Of a stretch of DNA of 64,000 bases, positions 32,550 through 64,000 are shown one piece after another. Every line of letters starts with the position of its first letter. The stretch's first letter is position 1. The stretch is from Antedon mediterranea (taxonomy: Eukaryota; Animalia; Echinodermata), in the NCBI RefSeq assembly GCF_964355755.1, contig NC_092680.1:20965045-21029044 (forward strand). The letters run 5' to 3'. The notes under the pieces are model-generated. The model was not told the origin of the DNA. It was given only the letters and a program-made list of their open reading frames with translations, and made no database searches. A program made the translations under genes and the position numbers.

Positions 32550-33250
32550 TTTTAAAAATGTGTATCGTCGACCCACCAGCTTTTTAATGATGAATGTGAA
32601 ATTCTAAGGAAGATTTTTAAGCGTCTGAAATATCTAGATGAACTAATAACAACAACCATACATAACTTTAAACCAGCAGAGAGCAATAACAACACTGCAG
32701 AAGGTGAAACAGATTTATCCGAAATACCAGTGCAAATCATCCTGCCATTCAAAGACCAGAAATCTGCGAACTCCGTCAAGCGACAACTATGTCAACTAAG
32801 TCACAAGATAAACAAAAACATTGTCCCTGTATTCATAAGTAAAAAAGTTAAAGAACATTAGGAAAGTCGAAAAGAAACCAACTATTATAAGTCAACAATG
32901 TGTTGTGTATAAATTTAAATGTGACTTGTGCGATGCAAGTTATGTTGGATATACATGCCGACACCTCTACCAACGCATTGTTGAACATAGTAGATGCTTA
33001 ATAGGACAGCATTTGAAAGATCATAACGTGATTGTTAATCCCAGTAAAATTAATTCATGTTTTAGTATACTTAGGAAATGCAAAAACAAATTTGACTGTC
33101 TTATCTATGAAATGTTGTATATCAGACAATTAAAACCTAGTCTGAATAAACAAAGTGACTCTGTAAAAGCTAAGCTTTTCATTTGACAGGATGTTAGACA
33201 ATAGGTCTTTTGTTATTTAAACTTTGACCCTTGGCTTGTGCTACTTGATT
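32550..33250 (+). mobile_element. Penelope-like retroelement 3' part (linker + GIY-YIG endonuclease), decayed
   Basis: ..LPFKDQKSANSVKRQL.., then a frameshift, then VVYKFKCDLCDASYVGYTCRHLYQRIVEH..LIYEMLYIRQLKPSLNKQ (ORF 32905-33186). Confidence 0.9.
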
Positions 33251-34584: not shown

Positions 34585-35413
34585 TAAGGTAAGGTAACAC
34601 AAATTCAGAAAGTTATTGTAACTGAAATTAAGCAGTAGACATAAGCATAGTATTATAAATTATATTAATTAAAATAGTTTTTTATAGACAAATACAATCA
34701 ATAAACATACAAAATCAAAGCATGGATAACAATAAAAATAACGGTGATGAAAACGAAATATCAAATCCAATGGATATACTATTTAATCCAATATCTATTG
34801 ATAATGGTAATAATGACCATGACGAATTCATTGAATATAGTCTCAGAAACAAGCTAAATGCTATTGAGACATGTTCTTATATGAGTCCATATGACTTGAA
34901 TGAATCTGTGAAGAAATTAAAAAATATTGGCTACTCATTTCTTCACTATAATATTCGAAGTATCAATAAACACATTGATGAACTAACTACATACCTAAAC
35001 TTAATCAACCACCCCTTTACAGTTATTGGTATATCGGAAACATGGTTAAACAATACATCGTGCAAACCATATTTACCGAGCTATGACTTCCTCGCATTAG
35101 ATAGGAAGAACCGTAAAGGAGGGGGAGTTGGTATGTTTGTTTCTGCTACAATTGACATAAAAGAACGAAAAGATCTATTTATTGAATCTTGTGAATGTAT
35201 TTTTATTGAAATAATTGAAAAAAAATGTAACAATACGATTGTTGGTATAATATATAGACCTCCCGATTCGAATATAGAACTTTTTAATAGATCACTAGAC
35301 GATATTCTTAATACTATTGATATCGAGGGAAAATCATGCCACATTACGGGTGATTTTAACATTAATTTACTTAAGCATGCATCGACTGATTTTGTAAATA
35401 ATTTTCTAGAAGT

Positions 35414-38150
35414 CTGGGGCGGATCCAGAGGGGGGGTCCACGGGGTCCGGACCCCCCCTAAATTTTAAGGGTGCCCTTTTTTTAGAGGTTCAATATTTTA
35501 TTCGTGTGACATATTTGTGTGTATATTAGTATGCACAGAGTAGGCTACACTAACCCCAAAAATAAAAACAGAAATTTATCACAATGATCGCGATGTTAAG
35601 TTACGGCGGCCGATCAAAGAGCATCGTGAGAGGTGGTGACGCGTGATGATCTCTACTTAAACTTCTAAAAATAGATCGTTTCAAATACTACAGAGGGCGC
35701 AAGTAAACTTTTTACGATTCAACTCCGCGTACGTTACCATGCGCGCTATGTCATTGACGCGATTATTTGTGTATTGGTAAACACATTTTTATGTATTATT
35801 ATTCTGAAAATAATTGAATTGTAAACATAATTCTTTTGAGTATTTGTTTATTTACATATCATTCCATCAGATCAACTATTTTTTATTTCCATTACTTCCA
35901 ACCAAACATGTAAAAAAATGTAGTTAAAATATCGTAATATCTAGCGCGTACTAGTACTACAAGCCATGTGCTTTTTTCTCTGAGAAATATTTATTATAAG
36001 TGCCAAAAAAATCGATATGAAGCCTTTATTATTCAAATCTTTTAAAGAAAAATCACACATACCATAAAGAAGGTTCATTTATTTCATTTTTGAAACAATA
36101 TTTGTGAAAATTACGTGAGGCTCAACTACAAAACCACCATTTTGTGATATAATGTCATCGTAAGCCAATCAAAGCTGAGCTTTCCCGCGATCGGCAGAAC
36201 TCACGGTTGAATGATTTTGGATTCTGGCTATCTGATTGGTGGACGCGAATCACCCACAGCGGAATGTTTTCTCTCGCGTGTACCAAGAAGTCACGTGATC
36301 TCTCTGTACTGAACGGTACGACACAAATTTAGAGCAATGAATTTGTACAACTCTAAATATTTTATAAACATTTAATAACTTATTTTATTGATATTTCCAA
36401 TGTTGATGTATAAAAGAAATTACTATAAAACGTAATTATATGTAATTATTTTAGCGAAAAATGGCGCAATTTGTTTACAACGTTCGTGGCCAAAAACGAT
36501 CATTTTCGGCAATGTTTTAGACCCTATATTTCGAAAACTTACTACAAGTCAGATTTTCGTAATTCTTTCTTTATTGGAATATTGAAACAACATACCAACA
36601 GATAATGTTTAAATTGGTTGAAAAATAACAACTTTTAATTTTGCATCGTTATCAGTGGTGGCGCCAGCGGGGGGGCTACGGGGGCTCTAGCCCCCTCGTC
36701 GGGGAGCCTAGCCCCCCCCCCCCCCCCCGTCGGGGAACACGGGTACTTTTTGTCGGGGAATATAATATACAGTAAAAAGCGTTCGCGTTCACTTCGTTGC
36801 TAGCTTCAGCGCCTAGAAAACCGCGACGTTTCATTGACCGTCAGAGTGATATTATGCACTTTATATGCATTCATTATTGCCAGCGATCTAACTTACTACT
36901 AAACAATAGCTAGGTACGCACTTGTCTGGCGGTATCCCTTTGTACGAATCGTTCAACGTTGGGTCGAGACGCGTGATATCATGTTCCATCCAGGGACCAA
37001 AATGTGTACTGTAGTTATTTTCCAGGCGAAGTTTACCGACGGTTACGTCGTGTACTGCGTCGACGTACGCTACACTACAGCAAAAATGAATTATGTTAAT
37101 TGTTCGTATGTTCACCAATTTTTTAATTTACAAGTAACCTTCTGTACCGTGGGGCACCTAAAATAAATTTTTCATCCATTACTAAACAAAAAAACATGTC
37201 ATTTTCGCTTAGCCATTATTATAGCTAAGTTATTACATTTTCAATATCCTGTATGTCATGAATTTCTCACCACTCGGATGTCCAGATGGTACGCACGCAT
37301 ACACTTGTGAGGAATAAACTTATTTCCCCGACTGAAAAAGGTCTACGCTTGCGTTTTTTAAGCCTCTAGGCCTGATGTTTCCAAAGTATAAAATGCAATT
37401 TTTTGAAGACCTGCAGCTCTAGTTTTAAACATTTTCTTAGCTCAGCCCCAACAATAAAGCTGGTCATATTTCGAAGAACAAGAAGTGCATTTTCCGGGAC
37501 CTAACATCTCTAATTTTCAAACATTTCTTAGCTCAGTCACAACCATGATAGGGACTTATATATTTTGTTTCATGTTTTGAAGTATAATAAGTCCAATTTC
37601 CGGGACCTCCAACTCTATTTTTCTAAATTTTCTTTGAACTTTTATTTTTTAAATTGAAAAATATAGATTGAAACAGTCATCGCGCATCGTTTTTTTGCAC
37701 GCAGTATTTTATTTATGCATTATAAAAAATGGAAAAAATGGCTACCCTAAATCTGATTAAAATGACCTCAAATGACGCTAGAACGCGTTGCTTCCGGGGG
37801 GTTCGCCCCCCTGGACCCCCACCGGGGGCCCTTGGCGGCCCCCTGGCCCCCCAGCCTAGTGATAGCCCCCTCGTCGGGGAATGTAGCCCCCGCGTCGGGA
37901 AGATCCTGGCGCCACCCCTGATCGTTATCCCTGCTAATAAAGTGTCATTTCCGGCGAACTAGAAAGGTGCCATTTATCATGGATTTTGCGTGCGAGAGTG
38001 CCATTTCCGGCCATCTAAGTGTGTCCTGTAACAAAATTCGCTTCGCCACAACCCCCACCATGCGGGGGGCTGTGGCTCAAATACTCAATATCTGATGTGC
38101 CCTTTTTATCGGCGGACCCCCCCTCTCAAAAATGTCTGGATCCGCCCCAG
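35414..38150. mobile_element. Non-autonomous DNA transposon, 16-bp TIR, 5-bp TSD
   Basis: TIR ctggggcggatccaga / tctggatccgccccag; TSD GAAGT (35409-13, 38151-55). Excision restores the APE frame NFLEVMMSH. Confidence 0.92.
36653..37920. mobile_element. hAT-like non-autonomous element, 8-bp TSD
   Basis: TIR cagtggtggcgccag / ctggcgccacccctg; TSD ATCGTTAT (36645-52, 37921-28); subterminal tagccccctcgtcgggga repeats. Confidence 0.92.
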
Positions 38151-40821
38151 GAAGTAATGATGTCGCATTCCTTCTACCCATCGATTTCAAGACCCACTAG
38201 AATACAAAACAACACATCTTCATTAATTGATAACATTTTCTCCAATACACTTTCTGAACAAATGTTATCTGGTATACTAATCTCAGACATATCTGATCAT
38301 TTACCGGTATACCAAATTATCCACTCCGTGCCCGACAAACATATTAAAGTAAAAACCGGTAATATAGAACCTCATAAATATGCAATAAACGAAAGAAATA
38401 TAAATAAACTATAATGACTTATTACCTGTTGATTGGGCTGATGTATATGTAAGGACAAACCCTGATGATGCTTACAATGCTTTTATCAACACTTTCAAAA
38501 AATTATATAATAAAAACTTTAAAAAAAAAGAAAAAGTTCAAGAAAATCACAAAAAGTATAAAAAGTTCAAACAACCATGGATGAGCTCAAGACTCTTAAA
38601 GTCTAGCAAAAGAAAACATGTGTTGTACAACAAATTTATAAAACATCCCTCGTCTAAAAATAAGGATATTTATAAAGAGTTTAATAAGTCATTTATGCGT
38701 ACATGCAAAACGGCAAAGAAATCATATTATGAAAATGTTTTTAACAATACTAAAGGAAATAAAAAAAAAACATGGAGGCAAAAATAATGTTCCATCCACT
38801 TTTACATCTGGTGACAAACTCATAGAGGGTTGTGAGCCTATTGCAAACCACATTAACGATTATTTTATTAATGTTGGTCTCAAGGTACGAGACAGTATTG
38901 AGCCATCAACGGCACAATACTCTGATTACCTGCTAAACAGGCAAAGTAACTCTATGTTTTTCTACCATGTAAATGAGGAGGAAGTGTTAAAAGTGATTCA
39001 ATCACTTGATGCAAACAAAACACCTGGTTTTGATGATATTTCACCAAAGGTAGTCAAGGCAGTTGGTGATGCTATTGTAAAGCCCTTGACTTATATATTC
39101 AACGTATCTCTTCACTCCGGCTCAATACCGGAACAGATAAAAATTGCAAAAGTAATTCCCATATATAAAAAAGGGGACCGTCATTTAGCCTCGAATTATC
39201 GCCCGATATCACTACTACCAATTTTCTCTAAAATCTTTGAAAAGATAGTCCATTCCAGATTGTATAATTACTTTAAAACTTACAATATACTAAATGATTG
39301 GCAATACGGCTTCCGAAACAATCATTCAACCTCCCACGCTATAATTGATCTGATCCACAAAATACTAAAGGCATTTGAAAACAAAGAGTTCGTAATTGCC
39401 ACATTTATGGATTTGTCAAAGGCATTTGATATTATTGACCACAGTATCTTACTGAACAAGCTATTCCACTATGGTATAAGAGGTGTTACACTAAAATGGT
39501 TCAGTAACTACTTAAAATCACGAAAGCAATATGTTTTTATAAATGGTACTTCATCTAATATTAAGGAGACTAGTAATGGTGTTCCACAAGGGTCCGTTTT
39601 GGGACCTTTGTTGTTTCTTGTATATGTAAACGATATATGTAACTCAAGTACACAAATTGAATTAATTAGCTTTGCCGATGATACAACAGGATTCAAGTGT
39701 GGAAATAACCTGAACGCATTGGCAAACACTATGAATGTGGAACTAGATAGAATTAATATGTGGTTCAAAGCTAATAAACTTTTATTAAACACCAGCAAAA
39801 CAAATTACGTAATCTTTAAAACTGCCCAAAGGCGTATTATTACAACCAACATTGAATTGAAAATGAATAACATTACTTTAGAACAACAAAAAAATGTAAC
39901 ATTTCTTGGGGTTGTAATAAATGAGAACCTTTGCTGGAAAAATCATATAAGGCTTATTAGCAAAAAAACCGCTAGGTCTATTGGAATATTGATAAAAACT
40001 AGACATTTTTTTCCTAATTATATTTTAACAAATTTGTATAATACATTAATTCTACCGCACCTTCAGTATGGAAACATTATTTGGGGCAGTACATATGATA
40101 GTACACTAGAATCCCTTCTTAAACTCCAGAAAAAGGCTGCTAGAATAATTTTATTTAAAAAGCCATGGCAACATTCTGAGCCACTGTTTAAGCAATTAAA
40201 TATACTTAACATACAAGATATCAACAGAGTTACCGTCCTAGATTTCATGGCCCAGATTAAAAGCAATGTTTTACCCAGACGAATCCAAATGATATTCAAA
40301 AGAAACGAAAATACTACCCATAATCTTCGAAATATTTGTAGCGTAAAACAACCATACTCTAGGTTAACGTCTGGTCAACATTTTATCAGTATTCACGGAC
40401 CGAAACTATGGAACGAGCTCTGTAGAAATCACTTAGATATTGTTAAAAAAAATTATAAAATACTAAAAAAATATGTAAAAAGAGACATTTTATCGAATTA
40501 CAGAACTTAAAATGCTTCACTCATAAAATATAGATGCATATATTATGCATTTGTGTTGGTGTGTGCGAGTATACACACATAGTACAAATAATCATGTTAA
40601 AAAAACAGTATCGATTTTTGATGATGAACAACTCTAAAATGTATATAGGAATGTTTTTTTTTATTTTGTATCTATTATGTTGTGTTTATTGTTTTATGTT
40701 TTTTATGTAAAAGGGTCCTGCGAAAACAGAAGTGTAAACTTCTCTATGCAGGATCCTTGCCATCATTTATGCTATGAAACTGTATTTATAAACGATGAGT
40801 AAATAAATGTGAAAAATGTGA

Positions 40822-44400: not shown

Positions 44401-47400
44401 GTAATGGTCATCGTAATGCCACTATCATCTTAAGTATCATCCACATCATTATTGGGGTCATCAGTGTTGGACTTGGAATAGGAGCATTAATTGTTGAATG
44501 TAGATATGCTCATATTGGAATGCCAATCTGGACAGGAATACTGGTAGGCAAATTATTATGTTATGCCATGTAAAATAACTTGGTGCAGTGGGTGATATGT
44601 CAAGAAGTAATTTAATTCTATAAGAAATTACTATTAAAAGCCATGCCATGCTGAAATCATCATGTAAATTTTAAGTAATTGTTAAAGAATAACAAGTTCA
44701 AGTAATTAAAAGTAAAATACATTTTATTTTTTTTACCTTTAGATCAAAATTTTTTTTAAACATTTCCGAGTGTGATCACCATTTTTGTGCAAAATTTGTA
44801 CTTACAGATATTTATGGTGACTGGTTTTTATGGATTTCTGAGTACCACAGAGAAAGGGGCATATGTAAGTTTCAATAGTATTGTGAGATAAACTAACCAC
44901 GATACAGTATGTAAGTTTGAGGATGGTAGTTTGTGATTTCAAATCTTATGATTCATTTTTGGTTTTTTTTTCCAAACAATTCTGTTCCCAAATGCCTTAT
45001 GTATACTTGTGTCTGGAACACGCAAAGAATTGAGTTCCTGGAAAGAGGCTTAGCCAATAGGCTACTCTTGAAAAATACATCATATATCTTGTATAGGGTT
45101 CGATCCTAAGTGGAGAGGTCACTGCATGTTCAATGTTTTAAATCCAGTTATAAATTTTGAAGAAACTACTGATTCAGGTGAAGAATTCAACAATATAACA
45201 GCTGAAAGAGTCTCATAACCAAGGGTAATATTATTAGAATGTTCACATGTCCTACAGTACCTGCTGTATTATTTTTTTTTAAATCGACTAATATTAAAGT
45301 TCAAGTCAAGTTCAAATTTATTCACATAATGCAAACATATACAAAATATAAAAGATACAAGTGGTTGGAAATTAAGTAAATAATAATTGCATTATGCCTG
45401 GAGAATACCATTTAAACCCCAAAGGGCTTTAAGCCTGGATCCACCAGAAAGAATAAAAAAGTTAAAAATAATAATAATAAGCAAGGTGAAGGTTAGCTAC
45501 TGACAGACAGGGACGGACATGTACGACGATACAAACACGACAAGGACAACAGGAAGGACATTTAAAATCTTGAAGATCTTATCAAAAGTGCCCGTTGATG
45601 TCTCTGATTTTGTTTATGTTGTGTGTATGTGCCTAATTTGTTTGAAAAATGTTTGTGGAAATGTATTAGGAAATTCTATTTAGTTTGTGCTAGTGAAACA
45701 TCACCTGAGGTCTGCCTTATTATCTATAAATACTAATATTTTTACAAATATTCTTGTTTATAAATTTACATACATTTCTATATTTCCAAAAATTAAAAAA
45801 CTTTCATCAAAAAAATTACAAATACCTTTAAAATGTAAATAAATTAATTGTATTACATGCCGTTTTCAGTGAATGAAGTATTTTTACAATTAGTAAGTAT
45901 TTGAGGTTTTTTCTTTCAGATCCCTTGTTTCTTTGCCTTTTCCATTCTAGCGTTCTTGATGTCTATTAACATGTTTAGCTGGGCAGCTGTTAATATTCCT
46001 AATGAAGAGCATTGCAGTGACCAATGTTTGGAATCGTGTTATGCTGCTCCTACTGAAAGCCCATATTACCCATGGTATACTACTGAAAGCCCATATCACC
46101 CATGGTATACTGAGCGTCCATATCCACCTTGGTATCCTACTACACCTGACCCTAGAAAGTACTGCTGTGACATTCGTTATATTTGTAACGATACTACAGA
46201 AGCGGTAAGGCTAATTAGTTTATTCACCTTGTATATATCTTGATTTTATTTGAATTTTTTTAAATTATATATTTTCTATAAAAAAAAGAATTGGGCCTCT
46301 GGGTATTTTTACTGTTGTGTTGTTGTTGAATCCACCACCATTTAAATCCAGCATGGGAGATTATTTGAAACCACCACCATATAAAGATGTTAAAAAAGAA
46401 ACATTTGTTTTATGTACAATCAAATAAACACCCCTAGATATACAATACAATATCAAGAAGTGAAAAAATACAGTAAAAATTGTATCAAAATGATTGGTAA
46501 AATGTAAATAATGTCAATCAATGAATTCTACTACAAATATAAATATGTTGTAATACAATATTGTGTATACATGCATGTATTTATTTCCTTAAATAAACGC
46601 CCCTAGGCAATTGATATTCTATGAGAGGTTTATTTGAATAAATACGGTAATTTATTTTTATTGATATATTATATTTATAAACCAGTTTGCATAAGAAATT
46701 GTTTTTTATATAACAATTGATTTAATTGAAAACCACCTCTCTTTTACACAGGTAGTTTTAGACAGTTTAATTGTTGGATTTGGTGTTTTGGAGATGTTGG
46801 TTTGCATGGCAACGTTTGGTCTGTCTTTTTCACAACTTAGTTGTTACTTTTGTTGTCGCAATGGTTGTTCTACTTGTAAATGTTGTGAAAATAAGGTAAG
46901 CTTTATACAGTGTTTGTATTCTTTCTTTTGAAGATTTATGATATAATGGTGTATGTGGACCAAGAAATAAGTATTGAGATGGAACTTGTTTCCACCACCT
47001 CCTTACTCGTAATTTACACACTGTCGTCGTATACTATCATAAATAATATTCCTTGTTCATTGTATATAACCTCCTTCGGTCATTAATGCTCATAAATTAA
47101 AAAGGTTATCTATTTCTTAACAATGATTTTTTAAGGTTTTGTTACAAAAATTTTATTTTTTATTTGTTTTTTTTTATTTTCAGAAAGATACTGCACACCA
47201 AATGGTGATGACAACTGATGGTAACATGATGATGGTAGCAGTACCAAACACACAGCACGGTATGATACCTTCCTTGGTAAACAATCAACAGATGATGCCA
47301 CAACCAATGTTGATTCCTGCTAATCAACTTATTGCTGGCCAGAATCAAACATCAGGGTCTCCTGTCCAGCCAAACATAGTTGGAGGACAGTTTCTGGTCC

Positions 47401-48065
47401 AAGGGAATGGACAACCACAACCAATGATGTTTCAAGGAAATGCACAGCCAATGGTGGTCCAAGGACAGGTTCAACCAATGGTGGTCCAAGGACAGAGGCA
47501 ACCAATGATGACCCAAGAACAGGTGCAACCTATGGTGGTCCAAGGACAGAGGCAACCAATGATCATGGTGCAAGGACAGGTTCAACCTATGATGGTCCAA
47601 GGACAGAGGCAACCAATGATCATGGTGCAAGGACAGGTTCAACCAGTGATGGCCCAAGGACAAAGTAAACCTATGGTAGTCCAAGGACAGGGACAACCAA
47701 TGGTAGTCCAAGGTCAGGTAAAACCAATGGTACACCAAAGACAGGGACAACCTATGGTGGTCCAAGGACAGGTACAACCAATGATAGTCCAAACACAGGG
47801 TCAAGGAATGGTGCCATCACAACCAGGAATACCAACACAGTCTATGTTTATTCAGCAACCAGTGGTTCCAGACGGTCAGGATGCAGGTGTGGTTCAAAGC
47901 CAGATGCAACAAAATAATCAACCAACTCCACAAAGTCAGCTAACCAACCAGACAGCTAGCGCACATGTTCAAGCAGGGTCACTTCCACAGGGAGTTGAAT
48001 CGCCTGCTGTGGCCAGTGATGATGCTAACCAAGGCATTGGGGTTATTCCAAACCCGACTGTCTAA
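41402..48065 (+). CDS. Double MS4A/CD20-like membrane protein, paralog 2, ~731 aa if the linker splices
   Basis: Exons 41402-41635, 41963-42013, 42224-42406, 42730-42861, 43425-43449, 44341-44543 (weak acceptor), 44808-44864, 45920-46204, 46752-46895, 47184-48065. Colinear with and clearly homologous to paralog 1. Confidence 0.75.
43560..44030 (-). mobile_element. Decayed LINE 3' fragment (Rex-Babar-like C-terminus)
   Basis: ILNDPSHLL..RSGRFR..RTFSSFLPQVIQLFN resembles the ORF2 C-terminus of non-LTR elements. Confidence 0.65.
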
Positions 48066-48985: not shown

Positions 48986-50195
48986 TTCAACAACCTGACT
49001 CTGCAACAGTGTATAATAGGAATTAATAACTATATTTTAATTCGTTACTTTGACGAATTACTATTCATGCAATTTCAGTTTACTTGTTATTTTAAGACTG
49101 CTCGCCGGCTTTTTAAAAATCTGTCCTATATATAGCAGGTCTGAAAATTATACTAAAAAGTGGTTCAGAATTGGGACCATGGTCCGGATTGCCTCCAAAA
49201 TTTAATGGAGTGGTCCTTGACCAATTATCTATCTATATTTTGGTAAAGATCTTGTAATTACTTTTTGAGTAATCCTGCTAACAAAACAAACAGACAAACA
49301 AAACTAATCCAAATTGTTTATGATTTTTATTATGCAGATATAACAAATATAACTTGTGCAGTATTTAATATGTTTGACATTTTTAACATTTCCATTTTAT
49401 GTTTATTATTTTGTATTTATATATGAAGAGTTCTATTTTAGTATACTAGTATATGAACTTAAATGCAGTATATTTAAAGTTACAGATTTAAATTGAAAAG
49501 AATATAATTTTAACTTGAATACAATGCAATAATGCGATTGATGGATGTTTTATTGAATCTTAATTTTCTAAATTGTAATTTTATCATATTTAATATGAAT
49601 TAATTGTGAATGTTTTTAATATATTTATGTAGAGTAAAACAATTTTTTCATGAACACCTTGTAATGTGTACCCCCCAAAAAATAGGGTAGTTTATTGTAG
49701 TCTTCGTGTATCTTCAGTTAGACTGAGTAAGCTTGGCTTGTTTTTACGATTTTTATGTAATAAACAAATAAGTCATTATTGTTTATCATATTGCTTGTTG
49801 TTGTACAGTGAATCCTATTTGGCTAAATTTTTAAAAATAATAATCTACTGTACCTGAAATTGTTGTTTACGTTTGTCTGGTAAGAATATTTTTCAAAATG
49901 AAAAATGTAAACAAGTTAAAAAAAATGATTTTACGATTAGAGTTCGTATAACTCTCTGCTGTGCGCGCATGATATGGTTAGGGTGTGGGTGGGGGATGGG
50001 CCAGGGGTGATTGGTGGAGAAAACTTTTCCGGTTGGACGATGTTGTCGGGTCCTCGTGTATTTCCGTAGGATTTTATTGCCCAAAGTGAGATTTCACTTG
50101 ATTTCACTTTATTATGGTGCTAGGATACCATGCTAGGTAACAAATTTTCACGTCCCCGTAACCATGGTAACAGCCCCAAAATGACGACCAAATGG

Positions 50196-51273: not shown

Positions 51274-51670
51274 ATTTTGGTTTTAGCAAGGTTAATAGGA
51301 TATTTATGACGTAATGATCAATAACGTAATACACGTAATAGACTATTACAGGTATCAGCTTTTCAGTCATGTACTTGGTGGCGTAACGGGTTATGCTATC
51401 GGCTGGGGTTCGAACCTCGACGGATATTTATTTATTTTTTTTTATATTGTTTTTTTTTTAAATAGAGATATGTTGCACTGTATTGTCGAACATGTATGGT
51501 ACCATACCGGTAGGTATTCAAATATGCTTAATACAAAAAGATATTAAATCCAGTGACTTATTTCTATTTTATATCACTGTGCTCCACTGTCTCCAAGTTG
51601 GGTCGACTTGAGCACAGTGTATTAACATACGAAAAGATATTAAAATTCTGTGAATTATTTCTATTTTATA

Positions 51671-51830
51671 GGGTCAGTCTAATTACCGAAAACAACCGAA
51701 AACAACCGAAAACAACCGAAAACAACCGAAAATAACCGAAAACAACCGAAAACAACCGGAAACAACCCTAAACAACCGAAAACAAACCGAAAACAAACTA
51801 AAACAAATCTAATTACCGAAAACAAATTTT
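51671..51830. mobile_element. Putative Mutator (MULE) terminal inverted repeat with (aaccgaaaac)n array
   Basis: Starts gggtcagtctaattaccgaaaac, has 10-bp tandem units and lies downstream of the MULE transposase. No partner end was found in the window. Confidence 0.6.
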
Positions 51831-51940
51831 TTGTTATGTCGCCCTCTATATTAATGATATATTGAAGTAGATAGCACTGCGTTATTACACGTGAGCCTTG
51901 GTTTGGTTGTCAGGATCTGACGAGTATTCGGCACCAAAAT

Positions 51941-52385
51941 CAGGGGCGGATCCAGGATTTTGAAATAGGGAGATGTGGGGGGGGGGGGGGGGGAGCAAAG
52001 GTAAAGTTTTCCCCTATGACATGTTCATTTCAAACTGAGAAGCAAAAAGCAAAGCTAAATACGTCAGAGGTGTTTTTTTGTTTTATAGTAGGCCTATACC
52101 CCCAAGTACCCAACAAATAATCCACTGAAAATTAATTAAATAGTCTATTATTTATTAAACTTTGTTATTCGGTGGCCATATAACAGCTAGAAGGCCTACT
52201 AAGAAATTTGTAATGCCTGAGATGATCATTGTGGGTGGGTGGGTAAGTTTAGTTCTGATAAAATGATAAGAAGTATTGGAACCATGGTGGGGCCTGTGAC
52301 GAAGCTAATTTACTCCCATGACACCCCTAGCTAGATGGCCGGAAATGGGTACTCTCGCGCGTAAAATTCATGAAAAATGGAACCT
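51941..52385. mobile_element. Fragment related to the 35414-38150 TIR family
   Basis: caggggcggatccag terminus; 52331-52385 is reverse-complement similar to 37963-38017. Confidence 0.6.
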
Positions 52386-54553
52386 CATAACTCATATCAT
52401 TTGACGTTATTTTAATGTTGATTCTTGAATTTATTTGTTCACTAAACGAATAACTGTAATTTATTTGAATGCAAATAGAGAGAAAATGATGCCTATGTGC
52501 TCACGCATGAATTTGTTCAAAGTACTTGTTTCATTAAAAAATCAATTTGAAAGAAAGAGTATAGCTAGCCTTCTGGTGTAATGCCCAATTCACCACTAGA
52601 CTAGACAAGTATTGTAATACAAATTAAAATCAAGGTTAAAATAAAAAAGAAAAATATATAAACATTTATTAAATAAGTTAAATTCTTAATTCCAGCAGTG
52701 TGCGTTTTAGAGAGGATTCATTTTAAGTCTTTTGCAGCGACAGCTTAATTTTGATTAAGTTGTTTAACAATTAAACGTAATGTTGTTTCCCCTGATTAAT
52801 GAGTTAATGAATGTTTTTCTCCGTTGAAATATATATATATATATAATAGTCTGACAAAAATGATGACAGGAAGTGAAAACACAAACATGTTTCATTAACT
52901 TGTAAATCTTTATTAACCTTAGGCCTAATCATATTGAGAGAACATGAGAACACAACTCAAGTCTGTAACATCTTTTTAGTACTAAATTTCATTTTGTTTT
53001 CGAGGTACAAACTCGATTCAAGATATCAGATGTATTATCAACATCTAGCCATGTTTGTTTAACTACAACAAACTAAATTTAAATAACATAGTGTAGTAAA
53101 TAAATAACATTTTTCATGTTTTAAATAATACATGAGAACACAACTGAAAATCTGTAACATAATTCCTTTTTTATTTTTTTATTTTTTATTTTATTAAAAT
53201 AAAAACCAACAGCGATAATTACCGCCACTAACAGGTTTGATACAAACAAAGCCAGGACTGTTTAAAGCACCTTGATTGGTCCTAACATTGGTCAAGGGCT
53301 TATCTCGTCTCTTGACCAGAGGAAAGGCATTAAATATAATGTTTTTGAGGTATACAAACTTGATTCAAGATATCAAATGTATTATCAACATCTACCTAAA
53401 TTTAATTTGTAAAAAAAAACACACAAAACATACTGAAATCTAATGTTTTTTTAGGTATAGGTTGAAACTCAATAAAATATCAATTTGTGAATTTTTTTTT
53501 GAAAAAGAACAAACTTAATACACATGTTTGTTGAAGGCAAAGTGATTTATATTCTATGTGGAGAAAAAATACAAATTATCGAACAAAAGTTTAAAAGAAA
53601 AAAGAAATTTTATAACTTAATGCTAATTGCAAAACTGAATATTTACAACTGCTAAGTTGTCAATCTAAATCGGATACGATTGCATTGCTTTTAAAAATGG
53701 TTAGACAGAGAACGTATGTTTTTAGGAAGTAGTGTTATACAAACCATGGAGGACCTCCATGTACAAACCAATATAAACATATTTAAAATTGCAATAATAA
53801 TCTGTAAATGCTATCTAGTAAATGCGTTATTAAATAATAAAAATTTAACACTGTGACAAATACTGGAGTAAATACATAAGTATATTTAAAATGCGACTTA
53901 ACTTTAACAATAATTAATATAAAAAGATAGATTTAATAAGTGCAAACAGAATTAATAACACGAGAAACTAAGGTAGGCCTACCTTTAATAATAAACGTTT
54001 CATTGTTAAAGTAATAGTAAAACGTACGAGATGTGGAATTATTAAATGTGCGACATAAAACACAACTGAGAACATTTAATCAAATTACTAGCTTTTGACA
54101 CATTGATGGCGTGGATAATGGGGTTCTTCGACAAAATTTAGGGAAACCGATTGAATAAGCTTAATGCACTTTTTATTTTTTTTTTTGGTGTAAAATGGTT
54201 CAATAGATATCTCGGAACCTCTTCAATATGAAAACTACAATACAATTACATCACGACGTGTTAAATAGAGTAAAAATTAGTTTGTGTAATTGTCGCCCTA
54301 ATTAGAGGGGTTGGGTTGCATTTATTCAATTTATTCGAATAAATACGGTACTATTTTTTTCACATTCAAATCTTTGTATTATACAAGTATATACTGATTT
54401 AATATAAATGATATTAAGTTAAAAACATATACAAAACAATATTATTATAAAAAGAGTGTAATTATTGTAGATTATGAGTTTCAAATAAGTGTGAATATAA
54501 AATAGCCTAAGTAAAATCTTCACCATTAATTCTTTCAAGTCTTGATACAACTC

Positions 54554-56433
54554 TTATTTCTTACTGAATGATGTGGTTTTTGCAACTCTGGTTCTTTTTT
54601 TTTGTCCTGGTTTTTTAGCACATTGTGGTGTTGCAGGAATAATTAATTTCCCGTCTTTAGATGTTGTTGTTTTTGCAACTGTTTTGTTCAGTGATATTTT
54701 CAAAAATCGTAAAACATATTTGTTTTTTTCATCTTCAGATTTCCCTATCCAAACCGAATTTGGCACTGTATATTTCTTTAATCTAGGGATAACGTAAAAA
54801 TTGCCTTGTCCGTGAATTGCACGCCGGGCGTCTGCATATTGTAATTTCGCAATTTTGTGTAGAATTTGTACTAAATCTGGAAGCCTTTGTGGTTTCCAGT
54901 TAATGGATAGTTTTAGAATGTGATTTATGCTTTCGCAGTTGTTGTTTGTCCAACGGTCCGGAATCACTCGGTCGGTAATATTGGGTCTGAAAACCTTTTC
55001 TTTTAAGGTTGGGCACAGTTTATCTCTAAAATAATTTCCAAATAGTGGAACTTGTTTTTGGAAATCTATTTCCAATTGTAGTGAACGTTTGTCAAATTGT
55101 GAAATGTTTGTACTCCCAAGTAATCCGGACGGCGAAAAGATTTTGTTTAGTATTATTTGTCGGTACTTATTATTTGCTCCTTGCTTTTCAAGCAAGTAAC
55201 GAGATGCATTTTGCTTGATATGCCTTGTGCACAATATGTGTCGCGAATTGGGGAAAGAAAAGTTTAAAGCTTTCAAAATTGCCTTTTCTTCGTCGGAACC
55301 TATGACCATATTACAACTCATACCAACTTCGGAATTGTTTATGTCACTGTCAAGCTGACAACGCAAATGTGTAAAGAAATCAAGATACGTGCTGTACCGA
55401 CCATCCCAGTGTAATAGCATCGGGCCGACAAAAATGGGATGATCATTTGCTTCTTTTTTAAGCAATAGAGTGTTTTTAAAAACAGTAACCGTTAAATAGC
55501 AAGCCCCCAAGTTAAAAGTCCTATCGATCCCTAGTATACTTTGAGAAATATTGCCACAACAAAACCTTCGTAAGTCATTAATTTGATTGTTTGTGTACAG
55601 AATTACACAAGGAGGCTGATTAGGTACAGCAAAGACTTTTTTTACAAATTCATGTTTTGTTAATTCGGTTATTAAATTTTGTATATCATCGGCAACATTA
55701 GACCTACTACCTGTGGTGAGTTTTTTTGATCGGTTATATTTCAAATTTCTCAGTTGTTTCATATCTCTGGGTGCGCTTTCGGGGTTAGAAAAAACCATAT
55801 CTGCGTAAGTATCCCTGGGTTTGGAATGGACAAGTCTACATTCAGCATCACGTAGAACTTTCGGATGAGTACGTACGTATTCTGTGTGTGTATGTCTGTC
55901 ATTACCATGTGACGAAATGGTAAAAGGAAAATTGCCAATGTATTCAACTACTGCTTTAGGCCTATTGAAGTTGTTCATTTTTTCGTTTTCGTTTTCTATC
56001 CACGACACTCGTTTTTTGTACCCTTTGTCTCGTTTTAATTTACAATAACACCTATGCAAAGTTATAATATTAGTCGGTTGTGGTACGAGCGGGACCCAAG
56101 TACCGTTTTTTTTAATGCAAAATCTATCACACTTAAAGACAATGGTGATAAGCCTTCCAGCTACTCTTGTGAACTGTGTCTTCGGAGTACTACTACTTGA
56201 CGAGTCCCATACACCACAATCATCAGGAAAGAAGCTACGACCACCTCCAAAACGTTGTTGTACATTGCCTTCATTGTTGACAACAAATAACATATTTTCT
56301 TTAACACCCTGCGGAATGTCTGGGAATGTTGCATTTTCTGATGTTTTCATGAGGATTTGGTATAGTTCAGACACCTGAACAAATTTTTTGTTTAACAACC
56401 GCTTTGTGAACCTTTTGCACGACATTCGGTCAC
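54554..56433 (-). CDS. MULE/Mutator DDE transposase exon
   Basis: Open for 626 codons with GIDRTFNLG (D), GSDEEKAI (D), LCTRH (CxxH) and WTNNNCESINH (E); acceptor ttcgttttag at 56434. Confidence 0.92.
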
Positions 56434-56853
56434 CTAAAACGAAGCATATTGAAAATTTCAAAATATTTAATAACAGTAATAGGCATGTTTCCTTTTTTGC
56501 GGGCACTGTTTATAAACTTTATTTCAATAGTTACTTTTGAGCAAATGTATGATGCATGCATTTTCTATTTTATATGTAATATTTTCACAATAGAATATTA
56601 GTATATTAGTAACATGTAATTGTACCTTAAGAACACGCTAAAACGTAGTCGATACATCTAAAGATAGTTTTATTTGGAAAATAAAAGATATCAGCCGTCA
56701 CAATTTCCCACAAAAATAAACAGAATTATTTTAATTTTAATTGCATATTGGAAATGATAATGAATTTTGTTTTCGAATATTGTGTCACACAAAGATAATG
56801 TAGATTTTATTAATATAGTGTTTCAATTAGGTTGTGTAAATTAAATAACGAAC

Positions 56854-59800
56854 CTTGCTTTTCCAGATCAGAACTAAATGAATTGTTTATGTGACTGTAT
56901 CGTGTTTCGGAATTACTTAGAGCAACTTCAGACTCGGACGAAGAAAATATAATTGGTGAATTATCGCCGACGTCTTCAATCTTGACAAATGCAGTGTGTC
57001 CCCTCTGTTTTTTTCCTTTTTAAAAATATATAAATATTTGTCAAACCATAAAGCAATACATAACTTACAAATGTATTCCCCTATATTTTCATGCTATTGC
57101 TGGGAGCTTTTCTTTTGCTTTTTAACGGTAAATAACATACAGTACATGATAAACAATCAGACATTGAATCGTGTTCTATATCATGATACATTTTATCCGC
57201 ATTTTATGCAGGTTGACCGCAGTACTATTGCAAATAACAGTACTTACAATGATAGGTGTATTTTAAACACTACCCTCTTATTAATAATGACACGATTTAC
57301 TGTATTTGGTGATTTGAGTTTTCTATTTGAATAATGAAACTCGAATCTTGTTATTGAAATATCATAAATTTAAGAAACTCAAATATCTGAGTTTTTTAGA
57401 TCTAGGAAACTTAGATATATTTAAAACTTGTGTTTTCTAACACAGATCTTGTAATGCGAAGATCAAAACGAACAAAACACTTACTTTCATGTTGCATAGT
57501 TTTTGTGGTTTTCGAGTCGGGCGTTGTCATCGACGTGCTTTTTTCCTTTATGATTTCGCTGTGGGGGTTACAAATTGGGGATTGGAAAATCACACTATCG
57601 CCGGAAGGCCTTCCTGTTATAGGCGTATGCAATACATCATTACGATTAGGTAGTAACTTTTCATTGGTGTCTGTATGATCACTGCTGTCGTTGTTGGAGT
57701 CAGAAAATTGATGTGATAATGAAATCAAATCAAAATCTATATCGGAAGATTGGCTAAAAAAAGAGGTAGCTGGAATGCCCTTAAAATTAGCCATCGTGGC
57801 ATTTGTGTCTGTCTTTTTGCTGTTGTCGCTGTTTGGTGTGGAGCGTGGAGATATGGAAATCATATCACGTTTATGGAAAGGTTGTCTATCAACAGAAGTG
57901 GAGGGAACGTCTGTAGGATCAACCTGTGGTGTTGAGTCAACGGAATCAGATGATATGGTTGCGATTCGTTGCTTCTTCTTCGGTCGCCTTGTTTTCTTTT
58001 TCCGCACTATAAAATGTAGATTCATATCGATAAGTAAAAACACACAATGTTATATGATCTAGATACATTCAGATATCTCAGTTTCCTATAGACACCTACA
58101 CTTATTGAATAAAACATTACTTTGTTAAAAAAAAAACAACAGATCAAAACACTACCTCCTGCATGATTCGTTACTTTCGTGGTTTTTAAGTCGGGCGTTG
58201 TCATCGACATGGGTACGTTGTCGCTATTTGGTGTGAACAGTGGAGATATGGAAATCATATCCCGTTTATGGCAAGGTTGTGTATCAACAGAAGTGGAGGG
58301 AAAGTCTGTAGGATCAACTTCAGACTCGGACGAAGAAAATATAAATGGTGAATTATCGCCGACATCTTCAATCTTGAAAAATACAGTGTGTCGCCTCTGG
58401 TGTTTTCCTTTTTGAAAATATATAAAATATTTGTCAAACCATAATGCAATGCATAACTATACATGTATTCCCCTATATTTTCAGGCTATTGCTGGGAGCT
58501 TTTCCTTTGCTTTTTAAAGGTAAATAACATACATGATAAACAATCAGACATTGAATCGTGTTCTATATCATGATATACATTTTAGCCGCATTTTATGCAG
58601 GTTGACCGCAGTACTATTTTTGGCAAATAACAATGAGTACTTACAATGATAGGTGTATTTTAAACACTACCCTCTTATTAACAATGACACGACTTACTGT
58701 ATTATGTGATTTGATTTTTATATTTGAAGCTTGAAACTCGGATCTTGTTATTTAAATTTCATAAATATAGGAAACTCAAATATCTGAGTTTTTTAGATCT
58801 AGAAAACTTAGATATATCTAAAATTTGTGTTTTCTAACACAGATCTATTCTTGTAATGCGAAGATCAAAACGAACAAAACACTTACCTTCATGTTGCATA
58901 GTTTTTGTGGTTTTCAAGTCGGGCGTTGTCATCGACGTGCTTCTTTCCTTTATGATTTCGCTGTGGGGGTTACAAATTGGGGATTGGAAAATCACACTAT
59001 CAGAAGGCTTTCCTGTTATAGGCATATGCAATACATCATTACGATTAGGTAGTAACTTTTCATTGGTGTCTGCATGATCACTGCTGTCGTTGTTGGGGTC
59101 AGAAAATTGATGATCAAAATCTATATTGGAAGATTGGTTAAAAAAAGAGGTAGCTGGAATGCCCTCAAAATTAGCCATCGTGGCATTAGTGTCTGTCTTT
59201 TTGCCGTTGTCGCTGTTTGATGTGGAGAGTGGAGATATGGAAATCACATCACATTTATGGAAAGGTTGTCTATCAACAGAAGTGGAGAGAAAGTCTGAAG
59301 GATCAAGTGTTGAGTCAACGGAATCAGAAGATATGGTTACTGTGGTTGCGATTCGTTGCTTCTTCTTCGGTCGCCTTGTTTTCTTTTTCCGCACTATAAA
59401 AATGTAGATTCATATCGATAAGTACAAACACACAATTGTATTTGATGTAGATACAATCAGATATCTCAGTTTTCTATAGACACCTACACTTATTAAATAA
59501 AACATGTCTTTGTTAAAAAAAAAAAAAAACAGAACAAAACACTACCTCCTGCATGTTGCGTAGCTGTTGTAGTTTTCAAGTCGGGCGTTGTCATCGACAA
59601 GGGTACGTTGTCGCTGTTTGGTGTGGAGATTAGAGATATGGAAAACATATCACGTTTATGGAAAGGTTGTCTATCAACAGAAGTGGAGGGAAAGTCTGTA
59701 GGATCAACCTGTGGTGTTGAGTCAACGGAATCAGACGATATGGTTGCTATGGTTGCGATTCGTTGCTTCTTCTTCGGTCGCCTTGTTTTCTTTTTTCGTA

Positions 59801-60601
59801 CTATAAAAATGTAGATTCATATCGATAAGTACAAACACACAATGTTATTTGATCTAGATACAATCAGATATCTCAGTTTCCTATAGACACCTACACTTAT
59901 TGAATAAAACATTTATTTTTTACAAAAAAAAAAACAGAACAAAACACTACCTCCTGCATGTTGCGTATCTTTTGTGGTTTTCAAGTCGGGCGTTGTCATC
60001 GACAAGGGTACGTTGTCGCTGTTTGGTGTGGAGATTGGAGATATGGAAAACATATCACGTTTATGGAAAGGTTGTCTATCAACAGAAGTGGAGGGAAAGT
60101 CTGTAGGATCAAGTGTTGAGTCAACGGAATCAGATGATATGGTTACTGTGGTTGCGATTCGTTGCTTCTTCTTCGGTCGCCTTGTTTTCTTTTTTCGCAC
60201 TATAAAAATGTAGATTCATATCGATAAGTACAAACACACAATTGTATTTGATGTAGATACAATCAGATATCTCAGTTTTCTATAGACGCCTACACTTATT
60301 AAATAAAACATGTCTTTGTTAAAAAAAAAATAACAGAACAAAACACTACCTCTTGCATGTTGCGTATCTGTTGTGGTTTTCAAGTCGGGCGTTGTCATCG
60401 ACATGGGTACGTTGTCGCTGTTGGGCGTGGACAGTGGAGATAGGGAAATCATATCCCGTTTATGGCAAGGTTGTGTATCAACAGAAGTGGAGGGAAAGTC
60501 TGTAGGATCAACCTGTGGTGTTGAGTCAACGGAATCAGATGATATGGGTACTATAGTTGCGATTCGTTCTTTCATTTTCGGTCGCCTTTTCTTTTTTTGA
60601 A
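56854..60601 (-). CDS. Seven tandemly duplicated phase 1-1 exons encoding basic + Ser/Thr/Asp-rich linker repeats
   Basis: Exons 60350-60601, 59951-60199, 59546-59800, 58887-59393, 58156-58407, 57485-58006 and 56854-57015 are all multiples of 3, open and GT-AG bounded. The introns are duplicated too. Confidence 0.75.
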
Positions 60602-60811
60602 CTATAAAAATTTAGATTTATCTCGGTCAATAATATAAACACACCTCTGAGATAACTTCGTTACAATAAAAAATAACAATGAACCAATCTATTGCGTACA
60701 CTACGTACGGATAAGTTTTGTGTATTCTTATCCTAAAATTTTATTTTTTTTAAATTTGTACAAATAAATAAGAAACCATTTGTCTAAATTAGTAGAGTAG
60801 GCCTAATTTAC

Positions 60812-61817
60812 CTTTCCTTTTGATTACTTTCTTGTGACCAATGTCGTCATACGAAGTAGATGACAAGCAAGATGACAATATTTCGGGTAAACACACTCTC
60901 TCATCTATTAAAGAACTGTCCAATAACGGGACAAAGTGGTTAGGAATCCACGTACCCTTTGAAGAAGGTAATAGTGTACTAGTCCACATAATAAAAATCG
61001 GATGTCTGTCAGCTGTTTCTTCGCAAGGATAAAAACTTCTATTCAATATGCGATGTGCATTGTCAGTAACGCCATTATAAGGAGGATACACAGAAATAAT
61101 TTCTTGCCCTATAACACTAGACAACGCCTGTATCTGCCAAGCTGAAGAATAACCGCTTTCACGACTACAATCTGAACAAGCGAGATTGTAATCAGGACTG
61201 GTTAAAGCAATTTTTGAATGTTTGTGCAGTTCCTTGTAGAATGTTTCTTTTTCTACCATATCAACAAATGTTCTTACGCGAAGTTCAGTAGCAATGTTTT
61301 CATTGCCAGTCAAAGCAACAGCTACGGCATTAAACAAGCAGCTACCGTCACCAGCGACAGATACAGGGATTAAACGCCCACCTCCACATTTGTTCATTAT
61401 ACTTGTAGAAACAGCATCGATGACATACTGTTGAGATATCGTAAACGGGGGTTTACTAAAGCGATGATTACGTAGAAATAAACGTTCACTTTGCGCTATG
61501 TCAAGTATATTGTAATTGTTTTTGGTAGCTGAATCAATACGCTCTAATGAGGCCAAAAAATCAAAACTGCCATTAGGGCTACAGCATTCGGAACAAGTGA
61601 AATGCAAAGGAGAGTTACCTAAGCTATGCAAGTTTGCTTTAGTTAAGTTTTCGCACAATATGTGGAACCAGCGTAAGCAATAATCACAAAATATACTGTC
61701 ATTGTTGCACGCAAACTTACAAACACCACAAAAGTATTTCCCCGTTTTTTTCTTGTCACAATCAAAACAAGTTAAACAAGGTCTAGTTTTTTTGTGCTGC
61801 CTTTTTTGTCTGTACAT
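60812..61817 (-). CDS. PHD finger + OTU-like cysteine protease (vertnin-like) exon
   Basis: CGVC..SIFCDYCLRWFHILC..FTCSEC (C4HC3); AGDGSCLFNAVA, AWQIQALS and PNHFVPL. Acceptor at 61821, ATG at 61817, phase-1 donor at 60811. Confidence 0.88.
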
Positions 61818-63274
61818 ATTCTGAAAGTAAAATAAGAACAATTGGTTTGAAAGCAATTGTAAGGTCCTATCATTAGCAAGTACACATTATATTTATCAGA
61901 TTATATTTACACTTTTGCAGCATTTACTATTTATAGAATAAAAATGTTATCTGCACTAAATAAGCCAGTCGGTAAATCTTTATGGAATTCATTTAAAAGC
62001 AATATGTTATATAACATTGAATGTGAAACATATAACAATAAAGAAAAAAGTATAGAAAAATGGGTAGCTTTAAGAAATAAGATTATGATAATATAATTTC
62101 TAATTTGATACGATTAACAGAAAAAGAATTACAGTGATACGGGTTACTGGTGGTACTGAGCTATTATTGTTTATTTTTATCATGTATATAAATATATTGT
62201 ATAATCCGGGTTGTAAAATGAAAACAAACAAATGAAAATGTGTGAACTATTTTAAAACGGGATAGATGATAATGATGATCCTGTCAAGTGTATAACAAAA
62301 TATAAGAAAATTAATGAAAAAAGGAGTAATACAGAATTCATATATGTAAAAATGTTACTTATGAACTGTAACGACATTTACAAGTTAAATAATACGATTT
62401 TATGTAATATGAGATAATATGAATGTGAATAAAAGTGGTGTTTGCGCCACAAAAGAGAAAAAGAAAAAAAACAAGTACACAAATCAAATTGCTTAACTTA
62501 GGCTTTATTGTTTTTCAATTCTTTATATCATTATTAGTCAAAATGATTAGTTTGATGATTTTTGGGTAAAAATTAAACTGCGAATGCGTATACGCGAAAA
62601 ATTGCGATTCGCACAAATAAATAACTTGAATACCGTTGTAGATATTTAAATTAAAGCATTCTTTATACACTGAATAATGATTAACTATTAAAAAATGAAC
62701 TGTAAATAATTATGAATGACTTACCACTGTGTGCTCGTCAGAACCGAACGGTTAAGTAAAAATAGACTGAACTGTTGTACAACTGAACTGAACTGTACAA
62801 AAATAAAGATTTAGATGGATTTTCTCCAGTGAGAATTCAAGAATAAAGGTATGATGTGTTTTTTTATCGCTTTAAATAGTGGAAAGAAACTTCAGCAGAA
62901 CCACGCTTTTTACATAGTTGCATGAAGGTCTTTTTTATTGGCTTATTTTCTGAAGCCTAACACCGTCAAAGTTCTAGACCAATCGCAATGCACATTTTGC
63001 CAAAGCTGCTCTCATATTTGGGACCATCTTTAAGAAATCGGAAACCAACAGGCTGCTTTGATAATAACCGCACACGGAACCGGTGCTATCGCCATATCAA
63101 ACACTATTTTGACAAAACCGTCCGACTCCGATAAAATGCCAGTTATTCCACTGACATATTGCAAAATAGGTTACCGTCAAGAATAAACATGTAAGGAACT
63201 CCTTTGTATGATCTTGATAAAATTACTAAGGTTCTTCGAACACAGAGACCAGAGACTAAGAGATAGGTCGAAAC

Positions 63275-63740
63275 GGGTGTCTCAAAAACAGAGACCAGAG
63301 ACCCGAGACCCAGGGTCTCTGTTTTCGAGAAAATCTGGAAAACAGAGACCCCCACTAAAACGTCTAAATAATACGTTATATAGGGGGTCTCTGTTTTCCA
63401 GAAAAACTCGAAAACAGATACCCCCATTAAAACGTCTCAATATTAAGTCAATATTACGTTACATAGGGGGTCTCTGTTTTCCAGAAAAACTCGAAAACAG
63501 ATACCCCCATTAAAACTTCTTAATATTAAGTCAATATTACGTTATATAGGGGGTCTCAGTTTTCGAGTTTTTCTAGAAAACAGAGACCTCCACTAAAACG
63601 TTTCAATATTAAGTCAATATTACGTTATATAGGGGTCTCTGTTTTCGAGAAAAACTCGAAAACAGAGACCCCCACTAAAACGTCTCAATATTAGGTCAAT
63701 ATTACGTTATATAGGGGGTCCCCACTAAAACGTCTCAAAA
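63275..63740. repeat. Array of ~80-bp units with internal inverted repeats; probable terminus of another TIR (MULE-like) element
   Basis: Starts gggtgtctcaaaaacagagacc; repeated aaaacagagaccccc..aatattacgttatata..gggggtctctgtttt. Confidence 0.7.
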
Positions 63741-64000
63741 TCACAGAATGACGTATCAGTAATAAACGGTAACTGATATGCCGATATCAAAGAACATGCC
63801 GCAACGATAAGAAGATTGATGAATTCTTGAACGCGTGTGAAGAGACTGTCATTTTGGAATACAAGGTCGACGTCCTAGAAGTTAAGTAAGATGTATAAAT
63901 GCATGTTAGAAGCTAAAAAGCGGGAGATTATTTCAAAAACTGACACTAGTTTCGTAACCTTTATTAACAAGCATAAAAGATAATAACGTACAATGCAATA

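Follow-up and report, generated by a model that had tools for sequence, protein, structure and literature searches.

An unbroken Mutator-like element of Antedon mediterranea with a predicted PHD-OTU-transposase fusion, a domain arrangement shared by many animal relatives

OTU, Ulp1 and PHD domains are known cargo of Ginger1 and Helitron transposons, and the combination of a Mutator-like element (MULE) with an OTU domain is already known from MuDR-6_HM of Hydra. In the sections of the papers drawn on here and below, MuDR-6_HM appears in MULE group 14 with one open reading frame (ORF) and the entry 'Ovarian Tumour Gene' (Table 1 of Dupeyron et al. 2019, PMC6446971). Ginger1 DDE transposases have been found fused to OTU, Ulp1 or Ulp1 plus PHD (Bao et al. 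2010, PMC2836005), and the same authors align the Ulp1 and PHD domains of Mutator transposases and propose that they have a role in transposition (PMC2836005). The VTD deubiquitinases carried by Helitrons are active, and protection from proteasomal degradation has been proposed as their role (PMC9741609); Helitron OTUs are also treated in PMC6431247. Here we describe a putative gene found in a stretch of 64,000 nucleotides (the window) of the echinoderm Antedon mediterranea (contig NC_092680.1, positions 20,965,045 to 21,029,044), in which a PHD finger, an OTU-like protease domain, a long repeat linker and a DDE transposase would be joined by splicing. On balance we find it probable that this is an unbroken animal Mutator-like element producing a spliced PHD-OTU-linker-DDE protein, with the OTU domain acting in cis and the PHD finger as a chromatin tether. 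A first-pass annotation of the window had already proposed the fusion, noting that some transposons carry Ulp1 or OTU proteases; the novelty was overstated, given that MuDR-6_HM is tabulated with an OTU and that the family is large.

Two long frames of the minus strand, 60789-61886 and 54554-56509, lie on either side of a 3.7-kb repeat region. A search between AG and GT for open exons of the lengths given by the first-pass annotation connected them in a nine-exon chain from 61817 to 54554 (5085 nt, 1694 aa, zero internal stops), reproducing those lengths exactly. In the joined model all eight introns are GT..AG and of phase 1, and the exons have a GC content of 0.37-0.45 vs 0.25-0.29 in the introns. 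The 1694-aa product has the layout PHD, OTU, repeat linker and MULE transposase, and this order, also proposed before, agrees with the Pfam and homologue searches and with relatives that carry it as single reading frames. As a sequence model the nine-exon chain is confirmed, and we infer a transcript that starts near 62800 and is spliced as modelled. Two indirect lines favour this splicing: the frame-keeping indels of the linker exons and the presence of the fusion throughout the family, both described below. No ATG was found within 62900-62725, the region of the putative non-coding first exon.

Exons 2-8 encode the linker, and in each of these seven exons the frame of the model is the only one free of stops. 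Indels among the duplicated exons are multiples of 3 in 5 of 5 distinct cases (3, 9, 6, 15 and 3) vs 0 of 9 in the introns (Fisher exact p about 1/2002, calculated by hand), a result that does not come from a selection of open copies, because the model takes in every repeat copy. The fusion would also survive the skipping of any linker exon, all of them being of phase 1-1. The linker has 784 aa, whereas those of 72 fused homologues range over 38-310 aa with a median of 104; exon duplications that kept the frame have made it about seven times as long as the family median. This expanded linker, exon-duplicated and rich in introns, is a feature peculiar to the window copy, and we see it as a tolerated expansion, probably still coding, that would have arisen in the lineage of this element. 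In the relative L052 (4182-5950), stretches of low GC and a short piece that is duplicated and similar to an exon lie between the OTU and the transposase, resembling the linker duplication in the window; when linker introns were modelled in the relatives L046 and L052, no clean chain with matching phases resulted.

Other origins of this gene were considered and rejected: chance open frames, by the indel and GC contrasts between exons and introns; a pseudogene, by the model without stop or frameshift; and a host gene adjoining a transposon by chance, by the presence of the fusion all over the family.

Exon 9 codes for a MULE/IS256-type DDE transposase with a CxxH motif, belonging to the Mutator superfamily. 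In its frame the Pfam MULE profile matched with E 5.2e-6 and 27.3 bits, just under the cut-off of 27.6. The D/D/C/H/E residues are kept in 76, 78, 76, 77 and 77 of the 79 aligned sequences, and a structure model with a predicted local distance difference test score (pLDDT) of 88.5 had as best PDB match the transposase of ISCth4 (E 1.1e-7), followed by Hermes and the P element. We take ISCth4 to be a member of IS256. The MULE identity given in the first-pass annotation is therefore upheld by the Pfam match, the conserved D/D/CxxH/E and the fold match to ISCth4. No Pfam FLYWCH match was found in the transposase at E up to 1, a search that did not take the N-terminal beta-rich domain alone.

In exon 1 Pfam detected PHD (E 4.1e-5, 23.9 bits, just under the cut-off of 24) and OTU (E 4.7e-5, 24.3 bits, cut-off 23.3), so that profile searches found the three domains that had been named, with PHD and MULE marginally below the curated cut-offs. 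We keep all these calls because homologue searches and folds back them. The closest PDB sequences to the PHD finger are those of PPS and Pygopus (E 1e-4 to 2e-4). When its residues were mapped with the pocket of Pygopus for histone H3 methylated at lysine 4 (H3K4me), as described in PMC2726290, Pygo Y341, W366, V350, A356, I357 and E360 corresponded to Y28, W50, C37, S41, I42 and D45 of the window protein. Among 65 family members, position 28 is aromatic (Y/F/W) in 54, W50 is found in 59, C37 in 53, a small residue at 41 in 52, I or V at 42 in 62 and an acidic residue at 45 in 47; the zinc ligands are nearly invariant among relatives. The domain is thus predicted to be a C4HC3 finger with the divider Trp and the aromatic wall of the H3K4me readers of the Pygo/PPS type, and binding to H3K4me is likely, because most of the Pygopus pocket residues are kept.

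In the OTU domain, 142 of 153 relatives keep the catalytic Cys and 139 keep the His; three residues ahead of the Cys, 121 have Asp and 27 have Asn. The first-pass annotation had considered all catalytic residues present. This holds for the DDE/CxxH set of the transposase and for the Cys and His of the OTU, and not for the whole of the latter domain, in which the Asp of D-x-x-C is Asn in those 27 sequences and a third residue is not assigned, most sequences having Val two positions beyond the His. The structure model of the PHD-OTU half (pLDDT 67.8) found VCPIP1, OTUD5, OTUD3 and Cezanne as best Foldseek matches. Its VIA-align alignment to OTUD3 has Z 13.7 and a root mean square deviation of 3.3 over 135 aligned residues; OTUD3, A20, VCPIP1, OTUD5 and TRABID were tied as structural matches (Z 12.8-13.7). 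As modelled, the domain has the OTU fold with the catalytic Cys and His of OTU deubiquitinases, and it is likely that it strips ubiquitin.

Sequence comparisons indicate that the fusion of PHD, OTU and transposase is a trait of the family, and that the window element is a member of a large clade of animal MULEs with an N-terminal OTU and often a PHD. Among 105 transposase homologues, 39 had at least 200 aa upstream, where OTU was detected in 36, Ulp1/C48 in two and no Pfam match in one; none of the 105 had an OTU downstream of the transposase. The PHD-OTU half matched 1896 representatives (E up to 0.001). Within the best 150 of these, 39 extend for 250 aa or more past the OTU, 35 of them running on into a transposase of the window type, and all three parts were present in 25 of the 150. 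Furthermore, out of 80 metagenome loci 28 had at least 1200 bp upstream, with an OTU on the same strand in 27, OTU and transposase in one stop-free frame in 20 and a PHD in 12. The same domain order was found in single called proteins (P0001, P0006 from Batillaria, P0007 and P0008), and Pfam confirmed the three domains in P0073, P0006 and P0142. The homologues with a named source come from molluscs, crustaceans, a tunicate and a lancelet. A first metagenome scan with a single protein gave no relative among 103 stretches, and a scan of viral_contigs none among 180. In a tree of 93 transposases (92 homologues and the window; quick, midpoint-rooted and with no support values shown) every main branch includes members with an OTU, and a PHD occurs here and there among these. 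Two sister transposases, P0026 and P0036, have Ulp1/C48 in the N-terminal slot where other members have OTU. The same type of OTU was also found C-terminal on another transposase-like protein (P0002, P0003 and P0005), before a FLYWCH-MULE in P0157 and together with a tyrosine recombinase domain in P0169. That Ulp1 stands in for OTU in the two sisters, and that this OTU type turns up with other recombinases as well, fits a selection for the removal of ubiquitin-like tags.

These comparisons bear on two other explanations of the OTU-like domain. It could be a self-processing protease that frees the transposase from a polyprotein instead of a deubiquitinase, as viral papain-like proteases self-cleave. 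Its constant N-terminal position ahead of a disordered linker and the missing third catalytic residue after the His would suit such a role; however, every one of its top fold matches is an OTU deubiquitinase, Ulp1 takes its place in the sister pair, and the same OTU type is C-terminal in P0002, P0003 and P0005. Neither was a conserved cut site noticed in the linker in the alignments, for which no dedicated test was made. We consider self-processing decidedly improbable. The PHD-OTU half could also be captured passenger DNA with no part in transposition, in the way that the OTU pieces of Helitrons are often fragmented and have been suggested to be non-essential (PMC11417382). Against this, the OTU Cys and His are conserved in >90% of the 153 sequences, which are at roughly 30-49% identity, with a position fixed over the whole transposase tree, making a mere passenger extremely improbable.

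The left end of the element is supported at 51671 by sequence comparisons. A 15-mer at the insertion edge recurs at 51559, there continuing TCACTGTGCTCC, and 12 contigs of the sequencing run X3 track the window to 51670 and then continue as after the 15-mer at 51559 (consensus agreement 0.7), indicating that the element was inserted immediately behind tattttata, in a host repeat of high copy number. The 16-mer at 51671 occurs nowhere else in the window. The motif GGTCA-nn-CTAA, present once in the window vs 0.41 expected anywhere, opens the inverted termini of the relatives L022, L023 and L042 and is almost identical to the end of contig L078, and the termini of relatives likewise run into short tandem units, as that of the window does into ACCGAAAACA. 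The left terminus, with a candidate 9-bp target site duplication (TSD) beside it at 51662-51670, is thus supported by the X3 contigs diverging at 51670 and by the matching termini of relatives; tattttata had been given as a 9-bp TSD in the first-pass annotation. No inverted copy of the left terminus exists within the window; the right end lies beyond 64000, which probably makes the element more than 12 kb long. At the inverted pairs of eight relatives no TSD was found, in contigs that possibly collapse several copies.

Contigs of 2084 bases show no difference from the window. In X2, X3 and X4, which are one sample and possibly the source of the window, the contig depth of the element is ~3-4.6x that of one flank stretch, a value that is not a copy number and hints only weakly at a small number of nearly identical copies. 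As a further weak hint, that the outer part of the 3' non-coding region is shared with additional related copies, the X2 contigs at ~52113-53161 have a depth of ~324 with 7-10 differences, vs ~135-165 over the element body. The youth of the element, also proposed before, is weakly supported by its open frames and by the 2-kb contigs without difference. At 63313-63720, probably inside the element, there is an 83-bp tandem array of palindromic units. A short protein-like open frame of the plus strand (~63780-63890), ending near a GTAAG donor-like site, might belong to a second, divergent gene running past the window.

Taking all this together, the transposase would cut and paste the element, with a deubiquitinase and a chromatin tether as parts of the same polypeptide; it would bind the repeated terminal units and duplicate 9 bp on insertion. 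The PHD finger would likely dock on histone H3 methylated at K4, as an optional tether. The OTU domain would most likely act in cis, taking ubiquitin off the transposase or off proteins at the transposition site, and ubiquitin removal would spare the transposase from degradation or eviction. A stronger version, which we hold as tentative and doubtful, is that a widespread animal MULE clade consists of reader-eraser-transposases, in which the PHD reads H3K4me to steer insertions or to hold the complex on active chromatin and an active OTU deubiquitinates histones or the transposase. PHD and OTU might instead serve chiefly to counter silencing where the element itself resides, perhaps by taking repressive ubiquitin off histones, and have no part in the transposition step. 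In favour of this, a histone reader adjoins the protease in one exon, the pair is conserved as a unit, and the transposase could carry PHD-OTU to the element's own ends; most fused relatives, though, have OTU without a detectable PHD, and we judge this quite unlikely.

Several findings weigh against the spliced, cis-acting fusion protein that we prefer. The spliced transcript has not been seen, the splicing being a sequence model. Seven of the 16 splice sites are weak: the donors of introns 2, 3, 4 and 6 (GTAGTG) and 8 (GTTCGT), and the acceptors of introns 5 and 7, both AAG and each with a frame-breaking CAG 11 nt downstream. Read unspliced, exon 1 stops at 60789-60791, leaving a standalone PHD-OTU frame of 342 aa, and the ATG at 56425 could start the transposase half alone. 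The pN/pS ratio for 10 pairs of linker copies gives a mixed picture, with ~0.35-0.6 for 6 pairs and ~1 or more for 4. Of 49 near-complete OTU-bearing homologues, some of which may be incomplete, 34 lack a PHD, and the family counts are not independent, the profiles having been built from the sets that they scored and the three data sets overlapping. In the PHD finger the lip position of Pygo D352 is Asn, and variable, so that the preference for a methyl state is not readable from sequence. The OTU has no acidic residue after the catalytic His, and transposon OTU domains have been discussed without an activity test as of 2022 (PMC9741609). Finally, the insertion is in a high-copy repeat ~3.6 kb past the last coding exon of a host gene, away from any evident promoter, so that promoter targeting gains no support. 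The runs X1-X4 all cover intron sequence and had no joint at a modelled intron. From run X1, which we guess to be RNA and which may carry DNA, no conclusion was drawn: it gave an unspliced contig over the edge of intron 8 and exon 9, and its depth was ~3-11 over the element and 130 at 49256-49706, the reverse of X2-X4.

Part of these findings would also fit a window copy that makes mainly two products, a 342-aa PHD-OTU protein and a transposase starting at 56425, or variably skipped isoforms, with the 1694-aa form rare or absent. Besides the stop of the exon-1 frame just inside intron 1 and the early ATG of exon 9, the weak donors and AAG acceptors agree with it, and OTU and transposase are not in one frame at 7 of the 27 OTU-bearing loci. 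Nevertheless, a single frame exists at the other 20 loci, the sites of intron 1 are good (donor AAG/GTAAAT, acceptor ending in TTTTTATAG), and the seven linker exons, 7/7 open and in phase, would be hard to account for if untranslated. Two separate products therefore seem unlikely to us, and the single spliced chain remains our preferred reading.

Around the element the window is AT-rich eukaryotic DNA with reverse-transcriptase frames similar to those of long interspersed nuclear elements (LINEs) and host genes with introns. A duplicated host gene exon with Q/P/M-rich 9-aa repeats is located at 27330-27974 and 47127-48065, and other paired stretches ~19-20 kb apart suggest a local duplication. 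Fragments similar to retroelement reverse transcriptase or endonuclease were recognized by eye at 32556-33186 (-), 33323-34612 (-), 34659-35468 (+) and 38019-40510 (+). Many dispersed copies of a short inverted-repeat family resembling miniature inverted-repeat transposable elements (MITEs), with a core of ~100 nt, are present at 219-25885.

Table 1 Features of the element and its gene model in the window
Feature	Position	Strand	Description
Candidate left copy of the 9-bp TSD, tattttata	51662-51670	+	Inside a high-copy host repeat
Left terminal repeat, foldback type	51671-51825	+	GGGTCAGTCTAATTA, then ~12 copies of ACCGAAAACA
3' non-coding part of element	51826-54553	.	Outer part, ~52113-53161, appears shared with further related copies
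Exon 9	56433-54554, 1880 nt	-	Transposase; in-frame ATG at 56425
Transposase residues	D 55523-55525, D 55292-55294, CxxH, E 54932-54934	-	D1372, D1449, C1470/H1473 and E1569 of the joined model
Linker, exons 2-8	56854-60601	-	S/T/D/K/P-rich; tandemly duplicated exon+intron units; five basic motifs resembling nuclear localization signals (NLS-like)
Exon 8	57015-56854, 162 nt	-	Linker
Exon 7	58006-57485, 522 nt	-	Linker
Exon 6	58407-58156, 252 nt	-	Linker
Exon 5	59393-58887, 507 nt	-	Linker
Exon 4	59800-59546, 255 nt	-	Linker
Exon 3	60199-59951, 249 nt	-	Linker
Exon 2	60601-60350, 252 nt	-	Linker
Exon 1, coding	61817-60812, 1006 nt	-	Acceptor 61820, ATG 61817, donor after 60812
OTU-like cysteine protease domain	60912-61433	-	Exon 1; D157, C160, H294; Pfam OTU
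PHD finger (C4HC3)	61584-61730	-	Exon 1; Pfam PHD; closest in PDB: PPS, Pygopus
Probable non-coding first exon	62725-62800, 5' edge approximate	-	Consensus donor G/GTAAGT after 62725; acceptor at 61820
Remaining right part, probably inside element	62801-64000	.	Element-level contig depth up to 63200

Ginger1, Helitrons and MULEs have repeatedly acquired ubiquitin and SUMO proteases, and this suggests that transposition is held back by a ubiquitin-based brake, which to our knowledge no one has yet defined. An intact PHD-OTU-MULE family gives a way into both this brake and the choice of sites by Mutator, by means of point changes such as C160A and W50A, and the shorter intronless relatives would be easier for bench work. 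If the reader-eraser-transposase were true, these elements would have a built-in module for chromatin targeting and against ubiquitin, allowing a direct test of Mutator site choice and of the host ubiquitin defence evaded. In maize, the cause of the preference of Mu for the 5' ends of genes is still open (bioRxiv 10.64898/2026.05.18.725947).

In the literature searched, a scope outside of which were Repbase Reports and most subscription journals, we found no description of an N-terminal PHD-OTU-MULE fusion. MuDR-6_HM, compared by its table description only, is 5227 bp long with no terminal inverted repeat (TIR) and no zinc finger, whereas the window element has a PHD, a terminal repeat, eight introns in the coding region and a likely length of over 12 kb. 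UniRef gives one of the fused homologues, P0045 from Pinctada, the name 'Vertnin' (VRTN), which is a database label only; for vertnin itself a helix-turn-helix motif like that of IS3/IS911 is mentioned in PMC3024977. The OTU and VTD domains of Helitrons and Helentrons are likewise deubiquitinase domains borne by transposons, although these are rolling-circle elements (PMC9741609, PMC11417382). Ginger1 differs by its core similar to the Gypsy integrase, its C-terminal cargo and a PHD paired with Ulp1 and not with OTU. Rehavkus shares the PHD finger and has a 9-bp TSD, for which the window offers one candidate copy, with no OTU listed in the part of PMC6446971 that describes it. A likeness at the termini is seen with Tm1, which together with Phantom belongs to the foldback MULEs. 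The ends of Tm1 consist of short tandem repeats, similar to the left end in the window, and it has a 9-bp TSD, with no OTU listed in the sections used of PMC3169594; Phantom and Tm1 have FLYWCH, while Pfam finds none in the transposase of the window.

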